DNA from: a virus
IMG/VR virus record: IMGVR_UViG_3300003937_000247
DNA: 64,000 nucleotides
Strand: one strand, 5' to 3'
The notes beneath the pieces are model-generated. The model was not told the origin of the DNA and made no database searches. It was given only the letters and a program-made list of their open reading frames with translations. Within the stretch, counting starts at the first letter, position 1; every line of letters starts with the position of its first letter. Shown in pieces: positions 9,052 through 15,952 of the stretch. Both the position numbers and the translations under genes were made by a program.

Positions 9052-9690
9052 TTGGCTATTCAGTTTTTTATTCTAATGAAAAAAAATATAATTAAAAAAG
9101 ATAAAACTTTATTATTATTAATTGAGTTTGAAGGCGTTCCAGAAGCACAAGCCGACAATCTACTTGATGAGATTAGGTATAGTTATCTAAAAAGATTACT
9201 ATTTGAGCACCCAGCAACTTCTTTACTTATTCTATCAGACCACCGAAGAGCAAATACTAGAATAGCCGCAATATTAGATCATTTACAAGATAGTAGAAGA
9301 ACACATACACATTCCATTGTGAATATTACACCAATCAAAACAACAATGGAAGATATCTACTCTATAGCAGATGTCCAAGGTTATAATATTCAGAATGTTA
9401 TTGTAGCAGGTTGTAATACAACAGGTTGTGTCTTTGAATCTATGCCTTATTCAGCAGTAAAATGGGCTCAAGCAGGCCATTTTGTACAGATAGTATTACC
9501 AATGTGTGGTGACGCTGACATACACGGTATAGGTCCTGAAAAATATATAAGATCATTTGCTCGTTTATATAAAAAAATTAAAAAGGCTAATGTTTTTAAA
9601 AATGTTGAAATAGTAAGTGAACTTCATACTGTGTTGCATTTTAATAATGGTGTGCAATCTAACAGATTTGATATAGAACCTAAAATTTAA
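9052..9690 (+). CDS. hypothetical, possibly isochorismatase/cysteine-hydrolase-like
   Basis: VIVAGCNTTGCV resembles the G..T..CV catalytic motif; the start is probably ATG ~9076. Confidence 0.35.
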   Translation: MAIQFFILMKKNIIKKDKTLLLLIEFEGVPEAQADNLLDEIRYSYLKRLLFEHPATSLLILSDHRRANTRIAAILDHLQDSRRTHTHSIVNITPIKTTMEDIYSIADVQGYNIQNVIVAGCNTTGCVFESMPYSAVKWAQAGHFVQIVLPMCGDADIHGIGPEKYIRSFARLYKKIKKANVFKNVEIVSELHTVLHFNNGVQSNRFDIEPKI

Positions 9691-11317
9691 TAGTATAGAC
9701 GTTTATAGGTTCTTCTTTACCTTTTACTTTAATCTCATCAATATATTTAAAATTAAATCTTTCAAATAAAGGTTCTCTAGTATTTTCAGATATAACAATA
9801 TCTTGTCCTAAAGTTTTACTTGAACTTTCCAATCTACTTGCTAAATTAACAGCGTCTCCTATTACTGAATAATCAAACCTTTGTTCAGACCCCATATTAC
9901 CTACAAGACATTGACCAGTATTGATACCTATACCTATGTTTAAAGGTGGATCAAACTCTTTAGTTTTATTCATTAATGCTAGTTTTTGTTTCATCTCTTT
10001 AGCAGATTTAACTGCCATCTCTCTATGATTTTTACAATCTAATGGTGCGTTCCAAAATGCCATAATACAATCACCCATATACTTGTCTATTGTCCCTTCA
10101 TTTTTTAATATAATATTTGTCATTGCAGTTAGAAACTTATTAACATAACGAGTAAGTTGTTCAGGATTATCTTTAAACCTTTCCGATATAGGAGTAAAAC
10201 CTCTAATATCTGAAAATAAAAATGTTAATTCTTTTCTTTCCCCACCTAGTTTTAATAGAGAAGGATCTTTTTGTAATTTTTTAACCATACCAGGTGCAAG
10301 GTAATGCTCAAATTGTTTTTTGATTTGTAGTTTTAATCTATTCTCTCTAGCAAAATTATTATAGATTAAATGAGACCATATAATACTTCCTATAATCATA
10401 GGAGTTATCCAATCAACCATTATCATATGTTGAGTCCATAGATAACCACTTGCAAGTGCTATATCAAAATAGAAACCTACTAAACATAATGCAGACCATA
10501 GTAATCCTAATCTAGGCATTATAATCAAAAGGAATAATAAAGCAATTATAGTTATTCCTATTTCACTTATATACAACCAATTAGGTCTTGTAATAAACTT
10601 ACCAGACAATAAAGTTTCTGTTGACAATGCCATTATTTCGTGTGTGTTTTTTAAACCGTTTGGAGTAAGAACGAAAGTAGAACCTTTAAAGGTTGTTCCA
10701 ATAAAAACTATTTTACCCTTCATAGATGACCAATCTTTATCAGTATAATCTATTCTAGGTATCTGGTGTCTGAAATCAATCCAAATATCGTCTTGGTTAG
10801 GTATTGGAAATTTAATGACTTTCAGTATAACACTTGGGACGGATTTGTCAAGCGGTAATTTTCTAATAGTACCATCAATATCAATAGGCACTTCTACATT
10901 TCCTACAGCAAGTGCTTTTCTCTCTATACTTTTTAGGTTTTTTGCTTGACTTGTTTCAGTTAATATGATAGGGTACTTGGTAATCATCTTCAAAAACATT
11001 TCATCACCACCTAATCTATCTTTATGTACAAAGACTACATTTAAGAAGACTAGAGCTGCACCATTTTTATATGCGTTGATTATAGTACGACCTAATAAAT
11101 CTCTTTTCCAAGGCCATTGACCAGATTTAACTAAAGCTTCATCCGAAATATCCAGGAGTACTAGACTTTTGGATTCGTAGTTATTCCCAAAATTTTGATA
11201 ATTATCTAAAGCAGAAAGTCTTGTTTTTTGTATCAATACAGGATTAGAAATATAGATTATAATCAATATTAAAGCAATCATCCATACAGACCATTTATTA
11301 GTTAGCAGTTTTATCAT
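9680..11317 (-). CDS. CHASE2-domain membrane-bound class III adenylate cyclase
   Basis: N-terminal TM, GQWPWKR (CHASE2), 3 TM helices, catalytic FSDIRGFT, DKYMGDCIMAFW, DYSVIGDAVNLASRLE, VKGK. Confidence 0.92.
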   Translation of the reverse strand: MIKLLTNKWSVWMIALILIIIYISNPVLIQKTRLSALDNYQNFGNNYESKSLVLLDISDEALVKSGQWPWKRDLLGRTIINAYKNGAALVFLNVVFVHKDRLGGDEMFLKMITKYPIILTETSQAKNLKSIERKALAVGNVEVPIDIDGTIRKLPLDKSVPSVILKVIKFPIPNQDDIWIDFRHQIPRIDYTDKDWSSMKGKIVFIGTTFKGSTFVLTPNGLKNTHEIMALSTETLLSGKFITRPNWLYISEIGITIIALLFLLIIMPRLGLLWSALCLVGFYFDIALASGYLWTQHMIMVDWITPMIIGSIIWSHLIYNNFARENRLKLQIKKQFEHYLAPGMVKKLQKDPSLLKLGGERKELTFLFSDIRGFTPISERFKDNPEQLTRYVNKFLTAMTNIILKNEGTIDKYMGDCIMAFWNAPLDCKNHREMAVKSAKEMKQKLALMNKTKEFDPPLNIGIGINTGQCLVGNMGSEQRFDYSVIGDAVNLASRLESSSKTLGQDIVISENTREPLFERFNFKYIDEIKVKGKEEPINVYTIKF

Positions 11318-11345
11318 ATTATCTATTTATTTAGCCAACTTATCA

Positions 11346-11353
11346 TATAAATA
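11346..11353 (+). promoter_or_regulatory. T4-type late promoter for the csg operon; a divergent AATAAATA variant at ~11324-11331 (minus strand) faces the cyclase
   Basis: TATAAATA 23 nt before csgF. Confidence 0.7.
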
Positions 11354-11375
11354 ATAGTATCATAAGGGGAGAAAT

Positions 11376-11840
11376 ATGAGAATTATACTAACAATTTTAG
11401 TGTGGTTTTCTATGTTTTCTATGACGAATGCTAGTGAATTAGGATTTAAATTTGATAGTCCATCGTTTTCTGGTCAAGGAAAGTCATCACATTATTTAAC
11501 AATTGAAAATATAGAGAAAACAAGAAAAGACGCAATTAAGGCTGCGAATAAAGCAGCAGCAGATAAAGTAATAGCAGACGCCAAGGCAACAGCCATAGCA
11601 AAATTCAAAGCAAATGTAGAGGCAAGATTCTATACAGCACTTGCTAAACAGCTTACAGATAATGTTTTCGGTACAGATGGTCTACAACAAGACTCTGGTA
11701 CATTTACATCACCAATTGGTGGTGAAGTAGTTACTTGGGCAACAACAACAACAGGTAATAATGATACTGTAACCGTAACTGTTACAGAATCAGATGGTAC
11801 CGTAACAACATTTACAATGCCTAAAGAGGACAATTCATAA
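11376..11840 (+). CDS. csgF: curli assembly protein CsgF
   Basis: Signal peptide then SELGFKFDSPSFSG...HYLTIEN; directly upstream of csgG. Confidence 0.85.
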   Translation: MRIILTILVWFSMFSMTNASELGFKFDSPSFSGQGKSSHYLTIENIEKTRKDAIKAANKAAADKVIADAKATAIAKFKANVEARFYTALAKQLTDNVFGTDGLQQDSGTFTSPIGGEVVTWATTTTGNNDTVTVTVTESDGTVTTFTMPKEDNS

Positions 11841-12877
11841 TGTTAAGAGCAATAGGAATATTTTTATTAACATTGTTGTTAGTTAGTTGTGCTGGAAGAC
11901 CTGATTTTGATGTACGAACCCAACCTGTACAATATAAAGATTTAACTGAAATCAAATCACCAAAAGGCGATCCAATAGTGATTGCAGTTTATGATTTCCT
12001 AGATATGACAGGACAAAAGAAACCAGGTGGTAACTTTGCCTCAATGAGTACAGCGGTTACTCAAGGATCATATCAGTTATTAATTAAAGCATTACAGGAT
12101 GCAGGTGATGGTAATTGGTTTAAAGTAGTAGAAAGAACAAGTCTCCCAAGTCTATTACAAGAAAGAAAACTAATTAGGTCTACAAGACAACAAGTTAATG
12201 GAGAAGGTGCAGAACCTTTACCACCATTATTATTTGCAGGTGCATATATCACAGGTGGTATAGTAGGTTACGATTCAGATATTAAATCTGGTGGTGTTGG
12301 TGCTAGAATTTTAGGCATACAAGCACATAAACAATGGCGACAAGATGTAGTTACTGTTATATTAAGACTAGTTAATGTACAAACTGGTGAAGTAGTTGTA
12401 TCAATTACTGTTGAGAAAACTATAATTTCAGGTGAAACTGGTGGCGATATATTTAAATATTTAGATACTGATACAATGTTATTAGAAGTTGAAGCTGGTG
12501 TTGCTAGAAATGAACCTGTTACTTATGCAGTAAGAAAAGCAATTGAAAAAGGTGTAGTAGAATTAATTAATGAAGGTGCTAAAAAAGATTTATGGGAATT
12601 TGATATACCAGTTGTAGAAATTACTGAAAAAAAAGTAATAGATTATACAAATAATACTGAAATAGGTGTACACGTTGATATGGGAGTGGTAAAAGAGGAA
12701 AAGACTTACGAAGAATACCTTGAAGAAAAGAAATTAAAAGAAGAAAACGAAGTAGCAGACGAGAAATTAAAAACAGAAGCTGCTGAAGAAGAATGGAACC
12801 AAATAGATACAGACGAGGAGGAGCAAGATGAAAAAACTGATAATGATTCTAGTGACTCTGGTAACCCTAACCAGTAA
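11840..12877 (+). CDS. csgG: curli secretion pore CsgG with acidic C-terminal extension
   Basis: Lipobox LVSC; AVYDFLDMTGQKK, STAVTQG, WFKVVER, LLQERKLIRSTR, GGIVGYD, NEPV. Confidence 0.93.
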   Translation: MLRAIGIFLLTLLLVSCAGRPDFDVRTQPVQYKDLTEIKSPKGDPIVIAVYDFLDMTGQKKPGGNFASMSTAVTQGSYQLLIKALQDAGDGNWFKVVERTSLPSLLQERKLIRSTRQQVNGEGAEPLPPLLFAGAYITGGIVGYDSDIKSGGVGARILGIQAHKQWRQDVVTVILRLVNVQTGEVVVSITVEKTIISGETGGDIFKYLDTDTMLLEVEAGVARNEPVTYAVRKAIEKGVVELINEGAKKDLWEFDIPVVEITEKKVIDYTNNTEIGVHVDMGVVKEEKTYEEYLEEKKLKEENEVADEKLKTEAAEEEWNQIDTDEEEQDEKTDNDSSDSGNPNQ

Positions 12878-13922
12878 TTGCTGGGCAGGTAATTCAGTTT
12901 GGATTCAGCAAGATAACCAAAACAGCAACAACTCTATCTTTATAAAACAAGATGGTACAGGCAACACGGTTGGTTATAGCACATCATATCCATTTAAAAT
13001 AGATGGAGAGAACATCACCATCATCATTAAACAAATAGGCGACAATAATAAAACTGATTGGTCAAATCATAACTCTTTTAAAGGTGATGATATGACTTTT
13101 GATTATACAGCAACTGGTGATTCTAATACATTGAGACCAGATATTGATGATACAGGTGCTGATGGTCATTATTATGACATAGATATTACAGGTGATTCAA
13201 ACAATGTAGATTTTGATACTTGGACGGCCGATGATGTACAGAAAACTAATGTTGATTTAGATATTACAGGTGACTCAAATGTTTTTTGGGTGCGTAGTAG
13301 AGGTGATGGTCATTTCTGGTATGTTCTTATGTCTGGCGACTCAAATAATGTACAAATTTATACCACAGCAGATTCAGTAGGATTTAATACAAACTCCAAT
13401 AAGGCTATTGGTCCACAAACAACATCACACGGACAATTTGCAGATAGTTCAGGTAGTGAAGGCGCAAGTGCCGACATTTATATTATTGGTAATTCCAATA
13501 CACTACACACTTCATCATACGGTACAGGCAATTATCAACTACACGATATTATAGGTAATGATAATCTTTTAGATATTCATTCTAGTTATACTAGTGCCGA
13601 TAGCGACCCATATGGAGATACAATGACGATATTAGGTGATAGCAATTGGTTAAGAACAATAATAAATGGTGATGATAACACAATAAGATTACATATGGCA
13701 GGTGGAAATAATACTGCTAGAATTTTCCTTTATACAGATGATTCAGTAATAAACTTTGCTCAAGTGGGTGGTGGTAATACTGGTAAGGTAACTATCACAG
13801 GTGATTCAATTTACGATTACACATTAAACTTTTCACAAGACGGTTCAGATAATTGTACATACTCATATAATAGAAATAATCAAACAGCAGACGTAACTGC
13901 TACAGTATCAAACGGTTGTTAA
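12828..13922 (+). CDS. curlin-like beta-solenoid repeat protein (CsgA/CsgB-like)
   Basis: Signal peptide; repeated x-Q/T-G-D/N-S-N units (IKQDGTGN, IKQIGDNN, ITGDSNN, IIGNSNT, QVGGGNT). Confidence 0.7.
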   Translation: MKKLIMILVTLVTLTSNCWAGNSVWIQQDNQNSNNSIFIKQDGTGNTVGYSTSYPFKIDGENITIIIKQIGDNNKTDWSNHNSFKGDDMTFDYTATGDSNTLRPDIDDTGADGHYYDIDITGDSNNVDFDTWTADDVQKTNVDLDITGDSNVFWVRSRGDGHFWYVLMSGDSNNVQIYTTADSVGFNTNSNKAIGPQTTSHGQFADSSGSEGASADIYIIGNSNTLHTSSYGTGNYQLHDIIGNDNLLDIHSSYTSADSDPYGDTMTILGDSNWLRTIINGDDNTIRLHMAGGNNTARIFLYTDDSVINFAQVGGGNTGKVTITGDSIYDYTLNFSQDGSDNCTYSYNRNNQTADVTATVSNGC

Positions 13923-13923
13923 A

Positions 13924-15952
13924 ATGAAGAAGTTATTTTTATTAGTATCAATCTTGGTACTTTTATGTACTAGTCTTTCCTCAGCACAAATAACAGGACC
14001 TAAAGTAGGTACTGTATCAGGCCAAATGGGTACTACTTGGAATGAGCGTGATGGTCAAACTGAAAATACAGCAATGGGTTATGAGTTGCAGATGAACGAC
14101 TTTCTCCAAACTGGAGAAGATGGTGGTATGATTTTATCTTACGTTGATGATACTAAATTTACAATGGGACCAAATACAGAATTAGTTATTGATGAATTTG
14201 CTTTTGATACTTCTTCTGTACCAATTGAAATTGCAATGAACATATCAGTTAATGTAGGTTCATTTACATATGAATCAGGTCAAGTATCCAATTTAGGTGG
14301 TGAAGTTAATATCAATGCTGGATTCGCTACAGTTACAGTACAAGGTACTGCCTTTTCAGGAACAGTTGACACTAGTGGTGAGGTTACAATTACCTTACTA
14401 CCAGATAGTGATGGTGATATAGGGTCTGTAACGGTCTCTAATGACGCAGGTTCTCAAACCATAACTAACGCATACAATTCAGTAACAGTTGTGTCAAACG
14501 ACCTGACACCAACTCCTCCAAAGATAGAAACTAATAAATCAGACATTATTGAGTTAGAAGAATTTGAAGAAGATATAAAAGATGAATCAACAAAAACTTT
14601 TGGTGATGTAGATAAAAAATCTGAATTGTCTAAAGACGAACAAGAAGCTCAGGAAATGGAAGAGGCGATAATAAATGAAGAGGCAAGTATTGTAGAAAAT
14701 AGTGATACAATTGTTGCTACAGATTTATCTGCTAGTGAAGCAGATACAATGATTGAAACAAAATCAGTAGAAGAAAATACTTTAGTTGAAGTAGATGAAG
14801 TTGATACATCTTACTATGATGAATGGGAAGATGATTTAAAAGATTGGGGTTATATAGATGAAGACAACCAGATTTCAGTTTGGGATGCCGAAGGTGAAAA
14901 AACTATGGATTGGGATGACGCAAAGAAAATGACTATTAGAAGACTATGGTTTAACTTCTTGGAATGTTGATGTAGATGAACAAGATGTTGTTGAAGATAC
15001 AAAAGATGAAACAGAAGCAACTGTTGTTGAAGGATATACTTGGGAAGATTTTGCTTTAGATGATGACTATTATAATAATAATGAATACAAAAACGCAGGT
15101 GGTCCTCCGACATTAACAGTACAAAACTATTGTGAGTACAATGGCTATGATGATTACTGGTGTAACCAAGATTATGTTGATTATCTAAATGACTGGTACA
15201 AAGATGATTGGACTTTAAAAGTAACCAATGATAGTTGGACTAAAGAATCTAAAAAGATATTTGGTAAACTATATGGTTGGTGTGGAAGTTGGCCAAACTA
15301 TAAAATGTGTGATGACCAGCCTAAACCTTGGAAGATGAAAGACTTAAAGAAGACTTATATAACTAATTGGAGTTGGGACGATTGGGACATATATTGGGAC
15401 GCATTATACGATTGGTGGTGGACAGGTTACGATTATAATAATGAAGATGATGAGAGTAATTGGGAAGATGAATATTCTTATGAAGATGACTATGATATAG
15501 ACGCAGAATTGGAAATATTATTAGCAAGTTATGATGAGGAAGATTGTTTAAATTATGGATACTATTGGGACAATGCAAATCAATCCTGTGGTACAGAATG
15601 GGTTGACAATAGTGGTTCAGAAACACAGGTAACTGCTAGTGGTGAAACTTTAAATTATACTACTGGAGATGTAACTCAAACTTTAACTACAACAAGTGGT
15701 GGTGTGTCAACAAGTACCACTTCAACAGGAAGAGTTTCAACGTTAGATAACGACTTTAACGCAACAGCTTCAACCTCTGGTGATTACACAATCATAAATA
15801 GATATAACGACAATCATAGGGCTTATATTAAGGTTGAAACTTCCAAGACAGCTGATATTCAAATTTTACAAGATTCAGAAGCACAGAATATAGATGTTGG
15901 CGATATTATACCTCCTGGATACCCATACATAACAATAATACAGACGGACTAA
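13924..15952 (+). pseudogene. FecR-domain periplasmic protein split by a frameshift at ~14933-14970
   Basis: FecR motifs (LQTGEDG, FTMGPNTELVIDEF, TVTVQGTAF). The second frame is open from 14933 to 15952 with continuous acidic W/Y/D-rich composition. Confidence 0.7.

Follow-up and report, generated by a model that had tools for sequence, protein, structure and literature searches.

IMG/VR virus record IMGVR_UViG_3300003937_000247 contains a 64 000 nt stretch of DNA (referred to here, at its full length, as the window) which carries a pelagiphage viral type VIII secretion cassette in the divergent-cyclase layout. The cassette consists of genes for a CHASE2 adenylate cyclase, CsgF, CsgG, a curlin-like protein and a FecR-fold protein, all inside 6.3 kb. 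We think that the best explanation, to which we give about an even chance (a probability of roughly 0.5), is that a viral curli secretion cassette has been joined to a portable envelope sensor made up of the FecR-fold protein and the cyclase. Late in infection, CsgG and CsgF would form an outer-membrane secretion channel and the Sec-exported curlin-like protein, a predicted beta-solenoid, would be its likely cargo, which would come to lie on the surface of the infected cell in the form of a fibre or an adhesin. The periplasmic FecR-fold protein and the inner-membrane cyclase would together be a two-part envelope sensor. The CHASE2 domain would have the FecR head as its protein partner or ligand, the variable FecR tail would link that head to the exported item, and the cyclase would turn the state of export, or that of the surface fibre, into a cyclic AMP (cAMP) signal. 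The FecR head is read as the partner of CHASE2 because the FecR fold and CHASE2 stay constant while the tail and the neighbouring export system vary.

The cassette itself has already been published. A csgF/csgG cluster was described by Zaragoza-Solas 2020 (PMC7029224), and Wittmers 2022 (PMC9599517) described, for both podophages and myophages, a set made up of CsgF, CsgG, two CsgA/B-like proteins, FecR and an adenylate cyclase, reported expression of the cassette in metatranscriptomes and read FecR as an iron regulator. What is new here is the pairing of FecR and CHASE2 across bacteria, which Wittmers 2022 (PMC9599517) does not mention, and a break in the FecR gene of the window record. CHASE2 is not mentioned in Zaragoza-Solas 2020, Buchholz 2022 or Wittmers 2022, and we found no publication that names CHASE2 and CsgG together.

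Co-occurrence of the five genes in phages

From two scans of IMG/VR we obtained 128 csgG loci, with some contigs fetched twice, and co-occurrence was counted in the 36 loci that had enough flanking sequence. The FecR gene and the cyclase gene are both present in all 36, and the curlin-like gene is present in 35. FecR follows csgG in every one of the 76 loci with at least 3.6 kb of downstream sequence. The cassette has two layouts: the cyclase is divergent and upstream of csgF in 19 loci, and is the last gene on the same strand in 17. Both layouts occur among close relatives, so the gene set survives rearrangement. These counts speak for one conserved unit in phages and on this point support an earlier reading of the window made from the sequence alone (the original prediction), in which the five genes were proposed to form a module integrated into the phage programme; the outcome that would have refuted it, FecR and cyclase genes that do not accompany csgFG in relatives, is clearly not what is seen. 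That prediction also treated the system as unrecognised, however, and here it was mistaken, as the published description includes both FecR and the cyclase (PMC9599517).

The window phage is T4-like and marine, has a G+C content of approximately 31-34 % and is related to the Pelagibacter phage HTVC008M, which infects SAR11. HTVC008M is the only sequenced phage that matched the window at the DNA level. The same block of genes is found in the cultured phages HTVC008M (KC465899) and Melnitz (MZ577097), and the GenBank record of the latter names all six genes of the published region.

The FecR/CHASE2 pair in bacteria

The bacterial test set comprised the 80 loci with cyclases closest to the phage enzyme, mostly from Alphaproteobacteria. 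A profile made from the phage FecR heads only matched a neighbour of the cyclase in 35 of these loci, with E-values down to 1e-30, and approximately 28 of the matching genes are immediately adjacent. A csgG or curlin-like gene, in contrast, was found within 8 kb of the CHASE2 cyclase in none of the 80. The original prediction had called for a check of co-occurrence in bacterial genomes; the association of FecR with CHASE2 recurs there, but that of csgG with the CHASE2 cyclase does not. The bacterial FecR neighbours are approximately 200-2500 amino acids (aa) long and the large ones combine Pfam FecR with cadherin-like, Big_9, FG-GAP, NIDO or serralysin-C domains. In approximately 12 loci a C39-type ATP-binding cassette (ABC) exporter and HlyD lie beside the cyclase. 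No iron-related genes were found among the neighbours examined.

The link from FecR to CHASE2 has independent support in the literature. In Burkholderia the 'BiofilmReg' operon encodes a LysM-FecR protein and a CHASE2 histidine kinase (PMC5192318), and clusters in Campylobacterota contain a CHASE2 cyclase, FecR, a TPR protein and a phosphodiesterase (PMC9239204). The S. meliloti cyclase CyaD1 (SMc02176) adjoins the FecR-domain gene smc02177, and Clr, a Crp-type receptor, is encoded nearby (PMC5498481, PMC13001267). CyaD1, CyaD2 and CyaK of this organism are CHASE2 cyclases which sense a protein signal through the outer-membrane protein NsrA (PMC13001267). Together with the neighbourhoods described above, the FecR fold and the CHASE2 cyclase look like an old, portable bacterial gene pair that is not specific to curli.

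The pair occurs beside type I secretion pumps in Alphaproteobacteria, where giant adhesin-like proteins have the FecR fold as their head, and beside a curli-type system in marine phages. It is possible, although we would bet against it, that the FecR head and CHASE2 form a portable sensor of export state or surface fibre that has been placed on at least two unrelated outer-membrane export routes, among them type I export of giant adhesins and the curli route.

A different explanation would be that the cyclase is mainly a metabolic takeover gene which reprogrammes the host by raising cAMP when CHASE2 detects a small molecule, either external or periplasmic. Its linkage with the curli genes would then reflect shared late expression and location in the envelope, with no shared pathway. 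This would fit with an enzyme that is intact and highly conserved, with a cited CHASE2 literature that names no ligand and with an S. meliloti FecR-domain neighbour that is dispensable for sensing. The strict co-occurrence in phages, however, outlasts rearrangement of the gene order, and adjacency of FecR and CHASE2 recurs in 35 of 80 unrelated bacterial contexts, which is hard to explain without a functional link. We therefore give this explanation only a small chance of being right.

One of the bacterial loci has a further feature. In the single-cell genome AG-337-E20, the gene directly upstream of the CHASE2 adenylate cyclase (L176:6231-7943, plus strand) encodes a HlyD-type adaptor with an N-terminal cyclic nucleotide monophosphate (cNMP)-binding domain (E 2e-18), and the contig has a second cNMP-binding open reading frame (ORF) approximately 4 kb away. 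The fusion suggests that cAMP acts directly on the type I secretion machine in this organism.

The CHASE2 adenylate cyclase

The cyclase matches Pfam CHASE2 (PF05226) with an E-value of 6.9e-26 over model positions 2-254 of 257 and Guanylate_cyc (PF00211) with an E-value of 1.9e-25. Hydropathy analysis gives a first transmembrane (TM) helix at approximately residues 9-32, a periplasmic CHASE2 domain at 33-245, three TM helices at approximately 249-320 and a cytoplasmic catalytic domain at 329-545. This is the architecture of CHASE2 receptors, in which an N-terminal TM helix, a periplasmic domain and three TM helices precede the output domain.

The catalytic domain has the two metal-binding aspartates D370 and D416, the substrate-specifying K412 within a DKY motif, R480, S484 and the transition-state residues N491 and R495. 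D370, K412, D416 and R495 do not vary among 40 phage cyclase homologues; position 484 holds S, D or T, and position 491 holds N or S. We take S, D or T at position 484, in combination with Lys412, to be ATP-type in all three cases, as in class III cyclases generally. The original prediction of an intact class III cyclase with both aspartates, the DKY lysine, the N/R pair and a periplasmic CHASE2 domain agrees with this inventory: the complete residue set of a class III adenylate cyclase is present and, judged from these residues, the enzyme is predicted to be of the ATP type. The closest solved structures are adenylate cyclases, namely 6fht (engineered Cya2) and 3r5g (P. aeruginosa CyaB). The identical cyclase protein is encoded on 16 contigs.

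The PycC models of PADLOC also match the cyclase domain (best E 3.7e-29), which raises the question of a role in defence. The enzyme could be a Pycsar-like pyrimidine cyclase, or the cassette could serve to exclude superinfecting phages by remodelling the cell surface; protection from superinfection has been suggested for it (PMC9599517). A match to PycC is, however, to be expected because PycC and the adenylate cyclases are homologous, and the solved adenylate cyclases score higher (126 and 124 bits). The pairing of Lys412 with Ser, Asp or Thr484 also points, on what we take to be general for class III enzymes, to ATP as substrate. The adjacent cNMP-activated effector that goes with the Pycsar cyclase class is absent: no Pycsar effector adjoins the cyclase, and no other cassette protein matches anything in PADLOC. 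A role in defence is thus very improbable.

The FecR-fold protein

The window FecR ORF matches Pfam FecR with an E-value of 0.0034, which is under the threshold. Pfam FecR does match 16 of 22 intact relatives (best E 1.5e-7), and it is the relatives and the predicted fold that carry the assignment. A cleavable signal peptide comes first in the protein, followed by a head with the FecR/CJM fold at approximately residues 25-200 and then an acidic disordered linker. A model of a full-length relative has an overall predicted local distance difference test score (pLDDT) of 59, with low confidence in the head region. Residues 53-198 of the model align with the cell-surface signalling domain of PupR (6ovm_R) with a Z-score of 14.7 and a root mean square deviation of 2.4 Å over 125 residues, and the head also aligns with 4m0h, a Bacteroidales anti-sigma factor (Z 13.4); the next-best match has a Z-score of 5.4. 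The phage FecR head is predicted, on this model, to have the fold of the PupR CJM (FecR, PF04773) subdomain. There are no genes for a sigma factor or TonB-dependent receptor (fecI/fecA) in the cassette (9680-15952) or in the flanking ORFs that were scanned.

The tail of the protein is approximately 500 aa long and comprises a Trp/Cys-rich region and a beta-rich C-terminus. Neither Pfam nor ESM Atlas, the latter without a usable match, gave a family or fold for it, and BLASTP of the tail against the 441-aa 'second curlin' protein of HTVC008M gave no match. We considered threading of the tail through CsgG and judged it unlikely, given the conserved cysteines and predicted folded regions. The idea that the tail ends in curlin repeats was dropped, as profiles of the FecR-fusion and curlin-like families matched at the signal peptides only. 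There is weak internal similarity (E 0.03-0.24) between residues 121-211 and 603-690 of P0122, the intact 718-aa form (window 14284-14556 and 15602-15865). This joins the end of the FecR head to the beta-rich C-terminal region and could be an ancient duplication or chance.

In the window, the FecR-fold gene is split. DNA alignment with six relatives shows that 128 nucleotides (nt) which they possess, or 43 codons minus 1 nt, are missing between positions 14931 and 14932, and the reading frame is therefore shifted. The 5' piece is identical to P0122 over residues 1-336 and continues with 12 out-of-frame residues and a stop. The 3' piece is open from 14933, has its first ATG at 15305 and no signal peptide of its own, and is 100 % identical to residues 380-718 of P0122. 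The ORF at 15305-15952, which had been left unexplained in the original prediction, is part of this 3' piece. Head and 3' piece are uninterrupted in 22 of 23 relatives, where the ORF that spans them is 706-745 aa long. The proposed tight operon of csgF, csgG, curlin-like gene and FecR stands as regards gene order and spacing, but the ORF at 13924-14970 is a truncated 5' piece and not a whole FecR gene. If the deletion is real, the frameshifted gene would give only a head with no tail.

The intact 718-aa form is found on 14 other contigs, one of them 170 818 bp long, and the truncated protein is on one contig only. Searches of IMG/VR and of JGI metagenome contigs did not recover the junction sequence. 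This suggests that the split is private to the window record, and it is probably either a rare deletion variant or an assembly fault. The FecR gene is not to be annotated as two genes. In one metagenomic relative (L006:5260-6786) the FecR-fusion gene is broken as well, giving 509 aa in place of approximately 715; the site is a different one, and breaks in this gene therefore recur in assemblies.

The curli pore and its putative cargo

The csgF product matches PF10614 with an E-value of 5.4e-10 (40.0 bits, with a cut-off of 25.8 bits) over model positions 2-132 of 132, and phrog_35372 with an E-value of 5e-33. The solved CsgF chains gave no sequence match to the phage protein. CsgG is matched by Pfam (E 3.2e-49) and by the E. 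coli CsgG structures (E 9e-49, aligned to chain residues 24-255), and has the lipobox LVSC with Cys17 and a conserved core at residues 18-255. The NCBIfam CsgG model gives an E-value of 1.3e-52, but the 179 bits are below the equivalog cut-off of 505, and the protein is therefore a divergent member of the CsgG family. The constriction loop of E. coli CsgG has the pattern Tyr-x3-Asn-Phe. In the alignment of this loop, KPGGNFASMSTAV of the phage protein stands against KPYP-ASNFSTAV of E. coli; Asn-Phe is there but shifted, and the Tyr is unaligned. The phage CsgG also has a C-terminal tail of approximately 90 aa (window 12605-12877) that is strongly acidic and probably disordered, and the final 50 nt of its coding region are shared with the start of the curlin-like gene. 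The HTVC008M CsgG is approximately 280 aa long.

The curlin-like protein has a signal peptide and approximately 14 repeats, which end in GDSN or QxGxxN. An AlphaFold2 model made with 23 relatives is all-beta, with a pLDDT of 71.8 and a predicted template modelling score (pTM) of 0.76. VIA-align places it with the beta-helical structures 3p4g, 8vba and 2odl (Z 16-17), and a Foldseek search of the PDB with the model gave nothing at E ≤ 0.001. Pfam Curlin_rpt (PF07012) matches 13 of 23 family members (best E 6.7e-8); the window protein itself has an E-value of 0.012 and 15.9 bits, under the 20.7-bit cut-off. The CsgA equivalog match is weak (E 1.5e-4) and far under its cut-off, and the protein is 30 % identical to the 'CsgB' protein of HTVC008M. 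That the protein is a beta-solenoid, as had been proposed, is thus borne out by structure prediction. We describe it as a curlin-like predicted beta-solenoid whose membership of the CsgA/B family is not firmly established.

Buchholz 2022 (PMC9004378) proposed for Melnitz that CsgG and CsgF form a gated outer-membrane pore for uptake or for the timing of lysis. The cyclase would then be a timer and the curlin-like protein an accessory or plug of the pore and not a fibre. The same study saw no clumping of infected cultures, viral cassettes have no csgE (PMC9599517) and the CsgG tail is unusually acidic, all of which speak for this reading. However, 35 of 36 loci retain the curlin-like protein, and as a long secreted predicted solenoid with curlin repeats it suits the part of cargo. 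In addition, the FecR/CHASE2 pairs of bacteria adjoin exporters of adhesin-like proteins and not lysis genes. We regard a pore for uptake or lysis as unlikely and favour secretion of the curlin-like protein.

Promoter motifs and control of the cassette

The divergence of the cyclase from csgF over a 58 bp region was correctly predicted. There is a copy of TATAAATA at 11346-11353 on the plus strand, 22 nt upstream of the csgF ATG, and a strong Shine-Dalgarno sequence (GGGGAG) comes after it. The same TATAAATA is found 21-24 nt before the csgF ATG in 16 of the 19 relatives with the divergent layout, and the remaining three have CATAAATA. On the minus strand, CTAAATAAATAG lies at 11323-11334, 6-10 nt before the cyclase ATG, and there is no Shine-Dalgarno sequence. 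On this side a TAAATA core, in the form (C/T)TAAATA and 6-12 nt from the ATG, is kept in all 19 relatives, again with no Shine-Dalgarno sequence. The T4 late-promoter motifs that had been proposed for both directions are therefore present as exact TATAAATA on the csgF side, but on the cyclase side there is only (C/T)TAAATA. Exact TATAAATA occurs 11 times in the window against 15.6 expected, which is no enrichment; no copy is on the minus strand, and 10 of the 11 are outside plus-strand ORFs. As the total is not above chance, the case for function is made from strand, intergenic position and conservation only. Late expression of the cyclase in the divergent layout is plausible.

These observations bear on the proposal of Wittmers 2022 (PMC9599517) that FecR and the cyclase control the viral curli genes, with cAMP acting via a CRP-type factor of the host and FecR providing a link to iron. 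The S. meliloti FecR-domain gene beside cyaD1 is itself induced by cAMP/Clr, which speaks for this proposal. A conserved late-promoter motif of the phage, however, stands before the csgF operon itself. The cyclase gene comes at the end of the transcription unit that it shares with the curli genes in 17 of 36 loci, and so could not be made before the genes that it should switch on. The cassette also lacks fecI and fecA as well as the anti-sigma and STN parts, five phage genomes contained no cNMP-binding protein, and no iron-related gene was found in the bacterial FecR/CHASE2 neighbourhoods examined. Regulation of the curli genes by the pair is, in our judgement, quite improbable.

Organization of the cassette and neighbouring genes

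The features of the cassette are listed in Table 1. The coordinates and spacing of the cyclase, csgF, csgG, the curlin-like gene and the start of FecR are as originally given: csgF and csgG overlap by 1 nt, csgG and the curlin-like gene overlap by 50 nt, and there is a gap of 1 nt between the curlin-like gene and FecR.

Table 1. Features of the secretion cassette in the window
Feature	Position	Strand	Evidence
CHASE2 class III adenylate cyclase, 545 aa	9680-11317	minus	Pfam CHASE2 and Guanylate_cyc
Divergent control region, 58 bp	11318-11375		Start codon to start codon
csgF, 154 aa, signal peptide	11376-11840	plus	PF10614
csgG, 345 aa, lipoprotein	11840-12877	plus	PF03783
Secreted curlin-like repeat protein, 364 aa	12828-13922	plus	Repeats and AlphaFold2 model
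FecR-fold gene, 5' piece, 348 aa	13924-14970	plus	Relatives and predicted fold
Deletion junction, 128 nt missing	14931/14932	plus	DNA and protein alignment with relatives
FecR-fold gene, 3' piece, 339 open codons	14933-15952	plus	Match to intact P0122

A 212-aa ORF with a TTG start (9052-9690) runs towards the cyclase gene and shares with it the last 11 nt of the latter. Pfam, PHROGs, PADLOC and NCBIfam assign it to no family and, of the first 60 loci, L003 alone had a homologue (62 % identity).

Distant phage cassettes have extra genes after FecR, which in L109 and L127 lie between FecR and the cyclase. They encode a GHKL-type ATPase (L109:15147-17021), an F5/8 type C lectin-like protein (L127:14204-16564) and a collagen-repeat protein with an Mtd_N head and chitin-binding modules (L116:14522-17740). 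A histidine kinase has been described upstream of podophage cassettes (Wittmers 2022, PMC9599517), and the GHKL protein of L109 may be what has been given that name. We looked for a CHASE2 histidine kinase in ten flanking or inserted ORFs, with no podophage locus clearly among them, and found the ten to be unrelated; they included radical SAM, AMP-binding, collagen-like and F5/8 type C proteins and one GHKL ATPase.

Weight of the evidence

A number of points weigh against a curli secretion cassette with a FecR/CHASE2 sensor. What the data show are the identities of the genes, their topology signals and catalytic residues, the strict co-occurrence in phages and the adjacency of FecR and CHASE2 in bacteria. 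Contact between the FecR head and CHASE2 is inferred, and so are the direction of signalling, the action of cAMP in the host and the order curlin/CsgG to FecR to CHASE2 that was originally put forward for the relay. In S. meliloti, SMc02177 is not needed to perceive the plant signal and behaves as an output gene induced by cAMP/Clr (PMC5498481, PMC13001267), so that FecR may act after CHASE2, or the two may work in parallel. The anti-sigma domain, TM helix and STN subdomain, by which FecR regulators act as a relay, are missing from the phage protein, which is aligned to the CJM part of PupR only. Its tail has six invariant and two nearly invariant cysteines as well as predicted folded regions, which makes passage through the narrow CsgG channel unlikely, and it shows no profile similarity to the curlin-like family, the one profile-profile match being at the signal peptides. 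A cNMP-binding domain is absent from the five related phage genomes, one of which is complete. The broken FecR gene of the window means either that the tail is dispensable or that the record is faulty. Finally, there was no clumping in Melnitz-infected cultures (Buchholz 2022, PMC9004378).

If the FecR head does bind CHASE2, it would be the first candidate protein ligand for this domain, for which the cited CHASE2 literature names none. A lytic phage would then give SAR11 cells a surface fibre whose state is read inside the cell as cAMP. The cassette fills several percent of some SAR11 and OM43 phage genomes, and phages of SAR11 and OM43 are among the most abundant marine viruses. The FecR/CHASE2 pair narrows the question to whether the FecR head binds CHASE2 and changes the output of cAMP, and the phage version is a small, tractable setting in which to study the CHASE2 domain.

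Comparison with known systems

The pelagiphage type VIII secretion region (Wittmers 2022) has the same families as the window and the same core order, csgF-csgG-curlin-FecR. Compared with HTVC008M, the window cyclase is 34 % identical over its full length, the FecR head 32 % and the curlin-like protein 30 %. The window differs from the published region in that its cyclase is inverted and lies divergently upstream of csgF, which is the arrangement in 19 of 36 loci. In addition, the window clade has no separate second curlin gene and has a FecR ORF of approximately 718 aa with a tail of approximately 500 aa, and in the window itself this gene is frameshifted.

In E. coli curli (csgBAC/csgDEFG), CsgG is homologous to the window CsgG, and the cargo candidate shares QxGxxN repeats and a solenoid model with the curlin subunits. 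The window cassette, however, has no csgE, csgC or csgD, and its cargo of 364 aa has approximately 14 repeats and scores under threshold for both Curlin_rpt and CsgA. FecR and the cyclase are not members of bacterial curli operons (PMC9599517).

The FecR/PupR regulators share the CJM head fold with the phage protein, which has a cleavable signal peptide in place of their TM helix. In the Lap system of P. fluorescens (LapA, LapBCE, LapD and LapG), the periplasmic end of a surface protein is read by an inner-membrane second-messenger protein. This resembles the phage cassette by analogy only: the proteins are others, the messenger is cyclic di-GMP and signalling runs in the opposite direction.

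The Burkholderia and Campylobacterota systems, like that of the phage, encode a periplasmic protein with a FecR domain next to a CHASE2 receptor. These systems are not viral and have no secretion pore, and the output is a histidine kinase or other partners. The Alphaproteobacterial cassettes differ in that the export partner, where present, is type I (ABC and HlyD) and the FecR protein is often giant and adhesin-like, and S. meliloti has Clr encoded nearby whereas no cNMP-binding domain was found in the five phage genomes. What they share with the phage is an exported FecR-domain protein encoded beside a CHASE2 cyclase.

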